Origin: Escherichia coli
GTDB lineage: Bacteria > Pseudomonadota > Gammaproteobacteria > Enterobacterales > Enterobacteriaceae
Length of the DNA stretch: 33,301 nucleotides
Direction: 5' to 3' (one strand)
Assembly: GCF_002854065.1 (NCBI RefSeq)
Contig: NZ_CP024149.1
Shown: positions 24,001 through 27,000 of the stretch, piece by piece
How the letters are laid out: each line of letters starts with the position of its first letter
Position numbering within the stretch: position 1 is the first letter of the stretch
Position numbers: made by a program

Positions 24001-27000
24001 TGACATCGGATTGTCTATCCTGCATTGTTCTTTACTGTCTGTAAGATCGGCGCTCATTCTTCCGGCGTTCTCCCGATACCAAAAAGACGGAACGCAAAAC
24101 GGCTTTCGATCCACCATTCAAAAATCTGCTCTGCGCAACCACAAACAGTTAAGGCGATCCATGCAGCAAGAACAACGTAACTACTGACATCTGCACCCAT
24201 GTACCAGGCGATAGTTAAACCCATCACTGCGATACCGCCTAAAAACTGCAACAAGAAACGAAATCCCGCAAGAATCCCCAATGGAATAACAACAACCAGA
24301 TAAAGGGAAGCAGCCAGAAGGTATCTGACAGGTGTCAGCAGATAAAAGAACCTGGATATTTTCTTTTTGTCAGAATAAACGGCATCATTTGCAACATCGG
24401 TTGAATGATCATTCATGCTGTCCCTGATTCTTTGAAAATCTACGATATTATCCTTCATATTGTTATGACCTCAATTTTCAGGTGGGTACATTTTATCAAA
24501 CATATTAGTAAACTCTGAGTCTTCCCTGGTATCGCCCTCATAACCAATTGTATAAGAGAACTTTAATTTATAAACTTTTCTCCCAATTTTTTCTGAAACT
24601 ACGAAACTTAAGTTCTTTACTTCCGTATGTTTCATGATTTCTTTTACTGATTTATTAAGAACATCTCTTTTAAAAGCAGGATAATCTGGATACTTATAAT
24701 CCTTCACCCCCCCCGCCCCTATTGTATAAAGATTCAATTCATCTTTAAGTTCATCTATTGTCATTTCAAAACTATTCGCGCGAGAATTATTACTATATAT
24801 TTTACGAATGAGTTGATATAGTGATGCAGCATTAACACTTGTCAGTCGAACAACAGATAATAAAACTTGCGTTGTATAACGTTTTTCTTCACCAATAAGT
24901 TTACATAAAAATCTTTTCGCTTCTTTCGTAAACTTGATCCCCACTCTACCTTCATTCCTGTAATAAGTAGAAAAAACAGTCAGACTCAAATTCATTGAAT
25001 CAGGTACATTACTTTTAGTGAACTTAAATCCCAAATCACTACTCAGTTCTAATATTTCATCATGTTTCAGCTTAAGAAGCGTCGTATCTAATATATTAGA
25101 GCCATCCCTCAAAGCAAGATAAGCCGCATCAGGCTTAACCTGAACCCATTTAATGTAATCGGCAACTGTCACATAAAATATGTGATCATCATCGAATTCA
25201 TTTTTAGAGTTTATCTGGCACATGGCTAAAAATAAGACTTTTTTAGCAGCCATAGGCAATGTTGACAGCGTTGAATTCAATTCATTTCGATGTCTCACTT
25301 TTGTTAAGCGAGAAAGGGAAGTCTTATTTGTCGTCATTCTCATTGTTCCAACACTCTTGATAATCAGACTTTAACACCAGAAACATGATATTACAACACA
25401 ATCAATATCATGTTTAACCGAGTATCTTCTCATGTTTCATATCTGTGATTTATCTCACAAAGGTAATCCATGCTCAAAATCCACACTGGATTCAAGGCAG
25501 ATTAACAACAGATTCAAAATAGATTCACCAGAAAGAACAACGAATTAGTATTCTTATGACACATTTTGTGGATATCACCGAGGAAGCTCTCATGTTTAAC
25601 CGAGGAAGCTCTCATGTTTAACCGAGGAAGCTCTCATGTTTAACCGAGGAAGCTCTCATGTTTAACCGAGGAAGTTATCATGTTTAACCGAGGAAGCTCT
25701 CATGTTTAGACAAAAAACACGCTTAAAATCAATAAATTAGAGCTACTCTAAGTTTTTAAGTTTTTAAGAAAAACAAGAAAAGATAAGGCTTTTAATGCGT
25801 GCGAATATTCAGGAACTGTGGATAACTCAACAAAACCAGCAACGATGATGGTTCCTTACCATAAATCTGTCCCCCGATGATTATTACCCGCAAGCTAAAA
25901 CAAACATCATCAATCATTAAAACTCATAACTTTCAATAACATAAAATCATCAAAAAAATATTTGATGCCTTATGTATCTCAATTTTCAAGACCATAAATT
26001 TGTCCCTAGTTAACTTTAACTTATTGAAATAAATATAATATTCGTGCGTACTGATCCTAATGTCACATCGCAAAAATTCCGCTTCCTCGCTCACTCAGTC
26101 GCTACGCTCCTGCCGTTCGGCTGCGGCGAGCGGTATCTCCTTTCTCAAAACCAGAGAGATTCAGATCATATGATCCGTTATTTGATCCTTTTTGGATCTT
26201 CCACTAAGAAGCCCTGAATCGCGCTCTGCCGCTTCGTTCGATACAACCATGAGGAAAACCATGCGAAATGAAAAAAATCGCTTAAAATGCGATTCAGAGC
26301 GTTTTAGGGAGGTTCTGTTAGTTCTCCTGCATTGCGCCCGTAGTTCGCTAACGCTCACACGCGCAGTACAGCGCCCCGCCATGCTGCAATGCACCAGGGC
26401 GGGGTAAACTCGCTTGCGCTCGCGCTAACTGCGGCATTCTGCGGCGCAAATCAGCATAATCATGGCCTGCTGGTCAGTTGGGCTTTGCAGGGTGAAGGGA
26501 TGGCCTGTGCACCCTGGTACGTTCGTCAGCGGCTGCGCCGCGCTTCGGGGCGATGTGGCTCCTGTGCTGCCCTGGTATTTTCGTTCGCCCCTTCCATCCG
26601 CTTACGCGGATTAAAAAACGTGATAACAATCACTTATCGAGTAAAAAAACGGGAGAAAACTTGCAAATACGACTTAAAGGTCGTATTATTGTTTCATCGA
26701 AAGGGGAATGGCCCCTCTCACAATAGCCCAGCAGGGCAGGAGATTAAAAAAATGAATATCCAGGAAGCATTAAACGTTTTTGGATTATCCGGCGAATTAA
26801 CTGAAAAAGATATCAAAGCAGCATACAGAAAAGCCGCTTTAAAATATCATCCAGATCGTAACCCGTTAGGGGCTGAACTGATGAAAGCGGTAAATGCAGC
26901 TTTTGATGTATTGATGGCAAATATTGATAAAATAAATCAGTTCCAGAGCACTGATGAACATGCACGATATAATTACGGTGATGACCTGGAAAAAGTATTA

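Follow-up and report, generated by a model that had tools for sequence, protein, structure and literature searches.

What is a sequence best known from the flank of the ColE1/pMB1 origin doing beside the iteron origin of an incompatibility group X4 (IncX4) plasmid, on which strand would it act and at which moment in the life of the plasmid? The question is raised by a 33,301-nt stretch of Escherichia coli DNA (RefSeq assembly GCF_002854065.1, contig NZ_CP024149.1; hereafter the window, meaning the whole stretch), which is an mcr-1 IncX4 plasmid whose origin region is identical to that of many ~33-kb mcr-1 IncX4 plasmids. One of these, NZ_CP037906.1 (pLHM10-1-MCR-1, 33301 bp), is a 100% match over the interval compared (25350-26760) in reverse orientation, and its genes were mapped onto the open reading frames (ORFs) of the window (window position = 51305 - record position). 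A sequence-only reading of this DNA had singled out, next to the pi-type origin, a hairpin-forming sequence like the primosome assembly site (pas) of ColE1, and had offered for it a lagging-strand role at the iteron origin, a part in conjugative complementary-strand synthesis or descent from a past cointegrate with a ColE1-type plasmid. Taking homology, conservation of place, hairpin covariation and strand geometry together, we consider it on balance probable that this element is a PriA-type pas active on the minus strand.

The likeness itself is the starting point. The sequence quoted in the sequence-only reading is present in the window, although it is 61 nt long and spans 26077-26137, one base more than the end that had been given (26136). 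Pairwise alignment upheld the resemblance to the ColE1/pMB1 origin flank, with 63 identities over 73 positions and one 1-nt gap between window positions 26077-26149 and the pUC/pMB1 flank (U36911.1; locus L002, 1201-1272), that is, identity that is not scattered (BLAST E-value within the window, 1.6e-18). It is also specific and confined to the element, since the rest of the 1.1 kb pMB1 origin region has no other significant BLAST match in the window, and Rfam finds no RNAI there while the same search detects RNAI in five ColE1-type comparison loci (nor does Rfam report a match at the element itself). Small ColE1-type plasmids have only 26077-26150 in common with the window, and more than 5000 plasmid records match a 91-nt query. 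The remnant of a ColE1 replicon was rejected as an explanation, there being neither RNAI nor other similarity to the pMB1 origin, and the arrangement that would make the element part of such a replicon (a site downstream of an RNAII/RNAI origin, on the displaced strand) is absent from the window. As for the neighbouring origin, it is indeed of pi type: pir, the gene for the pi replication initiator, occupies 24471-25343 on the minus strand (ORF and record gene map), six tandem 22-bp iterons of an R6K gamma-like origin, found as a repeat family and similar to the iteron region of R6K, occupy 25577-25708, and the element starts at 26077, 368 bp past the last iteron. Judged by its sequence, the element is a true homologue of ssiA, the primosome assembly site flanking the ColE1/pMB1 origin that is kept in pUC-type vectors (PMC3167613).

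How far does the element extend, and who else has it? Sixteen aligned copies (from IncX1, IncX3, IncX4 and other pi-type plasmids, ColRNAI plasmids, pPCP1, pUC and one small MOBQ plasmid) share sharp common boundaries (TTCCGC...GAGCGG, 56-57 nt), outside which flanks are unrelated across replicon classes. In the window, homology, the aligned copies and covariation define a 57-nt core at 26077-26133, which reads 5'-CCGCTCGCCGCAGCCGAACGGCAGGAGCGTAGCGACTGAGTGAGCGAGGAAGCGGAA-3' on the minus strand, followed at 26134-26149 by an extension, TATCTCCTTTCTCAAA, that is common to pMB1/pPCP1-type and IncX1-type copies and is not shared by the aligned Klebsiella ColRNAI, IncX3 and MOBQ-plasmid copies. Scanning 100,044 species genomes with a sequence pattern yielded 70 loci, which with the loci already collected make 45 distinct core variants. 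Hits in Streptomyces, Cutibacterium, metagenome-assembled genomes and the like, being identical to vector or common plasmid alleles, were treated as contamination and not as host range, which is probably what many of the hits in unlikely hosts are; the nine matches in a phage collection were uninformative, most of them looking like vector or small-plasmid sequence in short, mostly unannotated records. In ColE1-type loci the geometry is fixed, all 16 of the 16 RNAI-positive loci having RNAI on the strand of the site at a distance of 480-590 nt; RNAII therefore runs toward the site, which sits downstream of the origin. The module is also found in two small MOBQ plasmids without RNAI (L017, L082), in non-mobilizable plasmids and, in Pantoea and Mixta contigs, next to toxin-antitoxin genes. 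Two further settings were seen in passing: a Candidatus Erwinia dacicola contig (L064, 2708-4240) has it directly upstream of an IncFII-type copB/repA pair, and a Pantoea stewartii locus (L025, 6736-7321) directly upstream of a homologue of the J-domain gene, with no pir in view.

The alleles of this module, as far as their sequences tell, do not track replicon type or phylogeny. Over 57-58 nt, IncX4 and Klebsiella ColRNAI plasmids have one and the same allele, with 100% identity, and the allele of IncX1 plasmids recurs in Pantoea/Mixta plasmids and in an IncX4-typed mosaic described below. Such a pattern suggests past module exchange between IncX and ColE1-type plasmids and argues against a random cointegrate scar. 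The idea that the element is left over from a past ColE1 cointegrate is thus unsupported in the form in which it was put forward: only a module of 57-73 nt is shared, IncX1, IncX3, IncX4 and other pi-type plasmids all have it at one place and in one orientation, and a simple scar is unlikely.

The site has the same position and orientation relative to pir in IncX1 (L005, L010, L014), IncX3 (L007) and three further pi-type lineages (L003, L006, L009), and a divergent form of it does so in two others (L008, L011), even though the pi proteins of the site-bearing relatives are only 35-49% identical to that of the window. Between IncX4 and IncX3, BLAST aligns nothing in the interval from the iterons to the J-domain gene except the site and a 51-nt stretch beside the iterons. 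Its range covers IncX1, IncX3, IncX4 and three other pi-type lineages rather than all IncX subgroups, R6K being without it. One locus typed as IncX4 (L019; CP059928.1, 3688-9754) has a backbone 95-99% identical to the window on both sides of the origin, a rep gene with no detectable similarity to the pi protein of the window and inserted stbDE-like genes; the sequences indicate that the replication cassette has been swapped within one backbone. The site is still found at this position in that mosaic, as a different allele.

Does the element form the hairpin that had been claimed for it? Folding energy gave no support, the short form having a z-score of about 0 on both strands, and was dropped as hairpin evidence in favour of covariation since short forms match shuffled sequences; compensatory changes across the family did support the fold. 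In a minus-strand alignment of the 45 variants, the 13 proposed pairs are standard in 585 of 585 cells, a figure that includes many columns fixed by the search pattern, whose invariance is uninformative, and alignments slid out of register leave only 15-47% paired. Within the outer stem, CCGCT/AGCGG, two pairs are altered on both sides (C-G to A-T and T-A to C-G, in three sequences each, although the three are related and may reflect a single evolutionary event). Covariation scored 0.052, compared with 0.024 for shuffles, and none of 500 shuffles reached that value, a control that is not to be read as a probability. The alternative stem CGCTCG/CGAGCG, seen in the minimum free energy fold of pUC, was discarded, as substitutions of the L018 type break it and preserve CCGCT/AGCGG. 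Pairing of alignment columns 11-13 with 43-45 would give a third stem, for which the short forms show 100% pairing and which L008 and L011 do not maintain.

The apex behaves differently from the base. Where copies of the pUC type have an apex stem GAC..GTC with one bulged C, those of the window type have it in the flipped form CAG..CTG. This stem caps a GC/GC mini-stem whose G-N-A loop admits any of the four bases at N; in DNA, both GNA triloops and tandem G-A pairs have unusual stability. The divergent copies L008 and L011 are the most telling evidence for a fold, keeping the ends ACCGCTCGCCGCAG...CGAGGAAGCGGAAT around unrelated inner sequences, which form perfect inner stems of 8-9 bp and 7 bp, respectively, and fold better than shuffles (z -2.8 and -2.3). 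Conserved ends around a re-invented inner stem imply, at the sequence level, selection on the fold. Covariation thus supports a structure made of a conserved base (5' CCGCTCGCCGCAG ... CGAGGAAGCGGAA 3', closed by CCGCT/AGCGG) and a variable apical hairpin, which fits a pas seen as a fork-like hairpin that is recognised by PriA (PMC5778457).

Two lines of evidence agree that the minus strand of the window is likely to be the active one. The displaced, RNAII-sense strand of ColE1-type loci corresponds to it, an assignment by geometry that leans on the established ColE1 mechanism. One-sided changes in the apex stem (16 apex types) read as G-T pairs on the minus strand and as A-C mismatches on the plus strand; they amount on the minus strand to 8 G-T and 5 mismatched cells, against 1 G-T and 12 mismatched on the plus strand, the count leaning somewhat toward minus because the pair register was chosen on that strand.

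The minus strand is also the strand that would be transferred. IncX plasmids are described as having two origins of transfer (oriTs) in long inverted repeats, one near taxC and the other near the rep gene (PMC3402527). In the window there are two inverted repeats of 94 nt, 99% complementary, one on the plus strand at 23934-24027, on the bis/pir side (a putative second oriT, with TATCCTG/C at 24016-24023), and one on the minus strand at 30724-30817, on the taxA side (a putative oriT, with TATCCTG/C at 30735-28); in the latter, read on the minus strand, an inverted repeat is directly followed by TATCCTG/CATTG. We take TATCCTG/C to be the RP4-type nic consensus, the stroke marking the nick, and in RP4 too the inverted repeat lies 5' of nic, on the side of the relaxase gene. 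The same motif recurs in the two repeats of R6K, which have TATCCTGCAT behind an inverted repeat of another sequence (L090, near 5189 on the plus and 10464 on the minus strand). In the taxA-side oriT a nick is predicted at 30729/30728 on the minus strand, so that the strand transferred from it would probably be the minus strand, entering 5' end first toward lower coordinates, with the site predicted to reach the recipient ~4.6 kb behind the leading 5' end. The genes between the site and this oriT (26752-30467) all lie on the plus strand, and the predicted transferred strand is therefore their template, as has been reported for leading-region genes (PMC11541004).

Upstream of these genes, and no part of the site, is a 419-bp direct repeat on the minus strand (copy 1 at 26332-26750, before the J-domain gene; copy 2, 99% identical, at 28412-28830). 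The single-stranded minus strand of 26310-26752 folds at -88.8 kcal/mol, against -68.8 +/- 4.5 kcal/mol in shuffles (z -4.45), and this structured repeat and the template arrangement are consistent with minus-strand transfer. A sigma-70-like TTGCAA-17-TATTAT (26661-26689) overlaps a hairpin (26666-26687) in the repeat, which is ~83-91% shared with other plasmids of 34-124 kb, each copy lying just upstream of plus-strand leading genes. It has no sequence similarity to the Frpo elements of F or ColIb, and these repeats may be a new family of single-strand promoters. Both oriT repeats point into one 6.7-kb segment, in which bis, pir, the iterons, the site and the leading genes are all contained. 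By the same prediction this segment would enter first from either oriT, and the genes with the transferred strand as template would be pir and bis if transfer starts at the pir-side oriT, and the J-domain set if it starts on the taxA side.

From these elements a sequence of events can be proposed. On a single-stranded minus strand the 57-nt module would fold into its hairpin and PriA, by analogy with ColE1, would recognise the fork-like fold on SSB-coated DNA and recruit PriB, DnaT and DnaC-DnaB, then DnaG, giving a primosome that would travel 5'->3' along the minus strand and lay primers. The best-fitting role is priming of the complementary strand in the recipient, because the site lies at the far end of the leading region on the strand predicted to be transferred; it would arrive after the leading-region genes, some 4.6 kb in, and its main job would most likely be to initiate synthesis of the complement of the incoming strand, with extension of the first primer back across the leading region while the moving primosome primes DNA still entering. 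Of the two functions suggested earlier, strand logic thus suits the conjugative one best, the minus strand being both the likely active and the predicted transferred strand. The lagging-strand one would apply to vegetative forks heading toward the iterons, on whose lagging-strand template the same site could reload DnaB, and not to a fork leaving the iterons rightward. One may go further and imagine an exchangeable establishment cassette at the far end of the leading region, in which the incoming strand is kept single-stranded while the 419-bp repeats, as candidate single-strand promoters, drive early genes, until entry of the site triggers PriA-dependent conversion to duplex, with alleles being swapped with co-resident ColE1-type plasmids; this elaboration is speculative and, we think, rather unlikely to hold as a whole.

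Several points weigh against a PriA-type site used in transfer. Besides the reservations attached above to the fixed alignment columns, the related covarying sequences and the choice of apex register, the short forms (59-86 nt, from the window, pUC and IncX3 copies) fold no better than shuffles (z +0.05 to -0.7), and the window core itself has a z of only -0.21 against shuffled sequence. Dependence on PriA is something that we infer from homology alone, and the nick and direction of transfer come from an RP4-type motif and not from IncX data. With the second oriT it would be the plus strand that is transferred, again leading into the 6.7-kb segment, and on that strand the site should have no activity. 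No part of R6K (IncX2) contains a copy, so that the element is not essential to the IncX family. R6K reportedly has single-strand initiation (ssi) signals of its own, said to have been described by Nomura et al. in 1991 (Gene 108:15); identity of the module with these was set aside because R6K has no copy of it, which is a statement about the plasmid, the signal sequences themselves not having been compared. Finally, the ColE1 homologue serves vegetative replication and not transfer, and in ColE1 deletion of the homologous site is reported to have mild effects.

The last point leads to the most substantial competing explanation, that the site primes vegetative replication and nothing else. Here pi and DnaA would open the origin, using a DnaA box (TGTGGATAA, 25817-25825) between the iterons and the element and a GATC-rich stretch (26164-26198), and the primosome would assemble on the exposed minus strand, either to start the rightward leading strand, like the G4-type ssi downstream of oriR in R1/R100, or to serve forks that come from an alpha-like origin near taxA and head to the iterons. 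Apart from the precedent of ColE1, in which the homologue acts in vegetative replication (PMC3167613), several features favour this view: here only 368 bp separate the site from the iterons; in most IncX types it is flanked by a conserved DnaA box on one side and by a conserved GATC cluster with 11-nt phasing on the other; it travels with the replication region in mosaics (the unrelated rep gene of L019 has the site beside it still); and the module is found next to an IncFII-type repA in the Erwinia contig and in plasmids that are not mobilizable. Against this, a fork that moves rightward from the iterons would have the minus strand as its leading-strand template, which is unlike the ColE1 arrangement, and R6K uses the same type of origin without the site. 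An exclusively vegetative site is a possibility that we take seriously and yet find doubtful, and a vegetative role is in any case compatible with a conjugative one.

Could the element instead do nothing at all? As a short ColE1-type patch picked up by recombination with co-resident small plasmids, it might be harmless or serve mainly as a patch of homology for cointegrates, and the 100% identity of the IncX4 allele to Klebsiella ColRNAI plasmids over 57-58 nt, the presence of the IncX1 and L019 allele in Pantoea/Mixta plasmids, alleles that ignore replicon phylogeny and the absence from R6K speak for such a passenger. Against it are a constant position and orientation across IncX lineages whose pi proteins are 35-49% identical, a site that stands as an island of conservation in an otherwise diverged intergenic region and divergent copies that keep their ends and re-invent the inner stem, which speaks for selection on the fold, and no other ColE1 sequence accompanies it in the window; a functionless patch is accordingly quite improbable. 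Less credible still, and in our view very improbable, is that the element works at another level, as an RNA element, a transcription terminator or a double-stranded protein-binding site. There is a sigma-70-like promoter (TTAACT-18-TATAAT, 26010-26039, 10/12) just upstream, a weak terminator-like plus-strand hairpin with a T-rich tail at 26111-26135 and, on the minus strand, an AATTTTT that follows the hairpin. Promoter-like sites are, however, no commoner than in shuffles (4 found, 2.9 expected), neither the T-runs nor the promoter is conserved among the other copies, their flanks being unrelated, Rfam has no match at the element and the compensatory changes speak against a plain duplex binding site.

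Seen next to known systems, a PriA-type pas in this place combines familiar traits in an unfamiliar setting. Its closest relative is the ColE1/pMB1 ssiA, also called n'-pas, an effector site for factor Y/PriA that lies ~100-170 nt downstream of ori; the two are homologous (63/73), with the same boundaries, conserved ends including GAGCGAGGAAGCGGAA and the same predicted hairpin frame. The window copy differs in having no RNAII/RNAI replicon and lying 368 bp from pi-type iterons and between two oriTs, in its flipped apex stem (CAG..CTG instead of GAC..GTC) and in its likely use on a transferred strand rather than on a displacement loop behind DNA polymerase I. The likeness to the phiX174 n' (PriA) site, the founding pas, is one of proposed mechanism (PriA and a fork-like hairpin on SSB-coated single-stranded DNA; PMC5778457). 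Sites of the phiX174 type are known to share little sequence. The leading-region ssi/Frpo elements of F and ColIb-P9 (ssiD, ssiE, Frpo1-3) resemble it in lying on the transferred strand, in the leading part, and in helping to prime the incoming strand (PMC11541004), but they engage RNA polymerase on a promoter-mimicking hairpin of ~300 nt, unlike a 57-nt element of PriA type. Five published Frpo/ssi sequences of F and ColIb have no BLAST match to the window at E<=0.01, and an Frpo-type element was ruled out for this lack of similarity and for its length of only 57 nt. The G4-type ssi of R1/R100, said to be known downstream of oriR from the work of Masai and Arai, is likewise a signal for initiation on single strands and lies a few hundred bp away from an origin that needs an initiator, but belongs to a different signal class, in which DnaG alone primes the leading strand. 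Lastly, the ssi-like palindrome of pHW126-like plasmids (pIGRK, pIGMS31) is, by description rather than by sequence, a similar accessory next to iteron-like repeats; it is non-essential in these small Klebsiella/Rahnella plasmids, and its deletion raises multimerisation (PMC6854812; bioRxiv 10.1101/2022.12.05.519187).

The surroundings of the site have features of their own. An AT-rich stretch lies between the iterons and the element, and the distance from DnaA box to site is 260 nt here, 121-123 nt in most other IncX loci examined and 95 nt in L011, with L019 differing again. Beyond the extension, 26150-26307 completes a 230-bp block (26076-26307) for which IncX1-like plasmids show 88-90% identity; this remainder includes four GATC sites (26164, 26172, 26184 and 26195), the last two forming GATCC-N5-GGATC. 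A GATC cluster beside the site occurs in L007, L008, L009 and L011 too, IncX3-like loci having three GATCC spaced exactly 11 nt apart and L011 an inverted pair, an arrangement that hints at control by Dam/SeqA or at a site in the origin flank where a protein binds. The same block has a minus-strand terminator-like hairpin with a T-run (GAATCGCATTTTAAGCGATTT TTTTCATTTC, 26275-26295), which could halt transcription heading for the origin. Farther to the right are the J-domain gene (26752-27267, plus strand), first of a plus-strand gene run that ends with hicAB, and then taxA (30828-31331) and taxC (31335-32564), also on the plus strand. Elsewhere in the window, Rfam reports a match to the AgrB antisense RNA family at 17477-17565 on the minus strand (58.7 bits, gathering score 40), of which dqlB, a DinQ-like type I toxin gene annotated in the RefSeq record, may be the partner. 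At 17141-19322 there are six copies of a ~25-45 nt repeat ending GTGACATAC, partly palindromic at 18529-18626, which by coordinate mapping surround a MipZ/ParA-like gene and, from their sequence, are likely to be centromere or regulator binding sites.

Elements of this kind have been known since about 1980, and the one described here is in itself of an otherwise ordinary and well-understood type. What appears to be new is where it stands: the papers searched contained nothing linking IncX with the primosome or a pas, and nothing relevant for R6K with PriA, so that this is a known kind of element in a place for which no earlier description was found. The classic 'pUC' primosome site emerges as a portable module, at home in ColE1-type, pi-type, IncFII-like and other plasmids, and its alleles, which move off the replicon phylogeny, have a bearing on recombination between co-resident plasmids; were the establishment cassette outlined above to be real, the module would also be a hot spot for IncX-ColE1 cointegrates. 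As for the plasmids themselves, those of IncX4 are among the main vehicles of mcr-1, and hence of colistin resistance, and those of IncX3 among the main vehicles of blaNDM. A PriA-type site on the transferred strand would be a concrete, testable step in the establishment of IncX plasmids, and it predicts that the efficiency of their transfer would depend on the PriA/PriB/DnaT pathway of the recipient.

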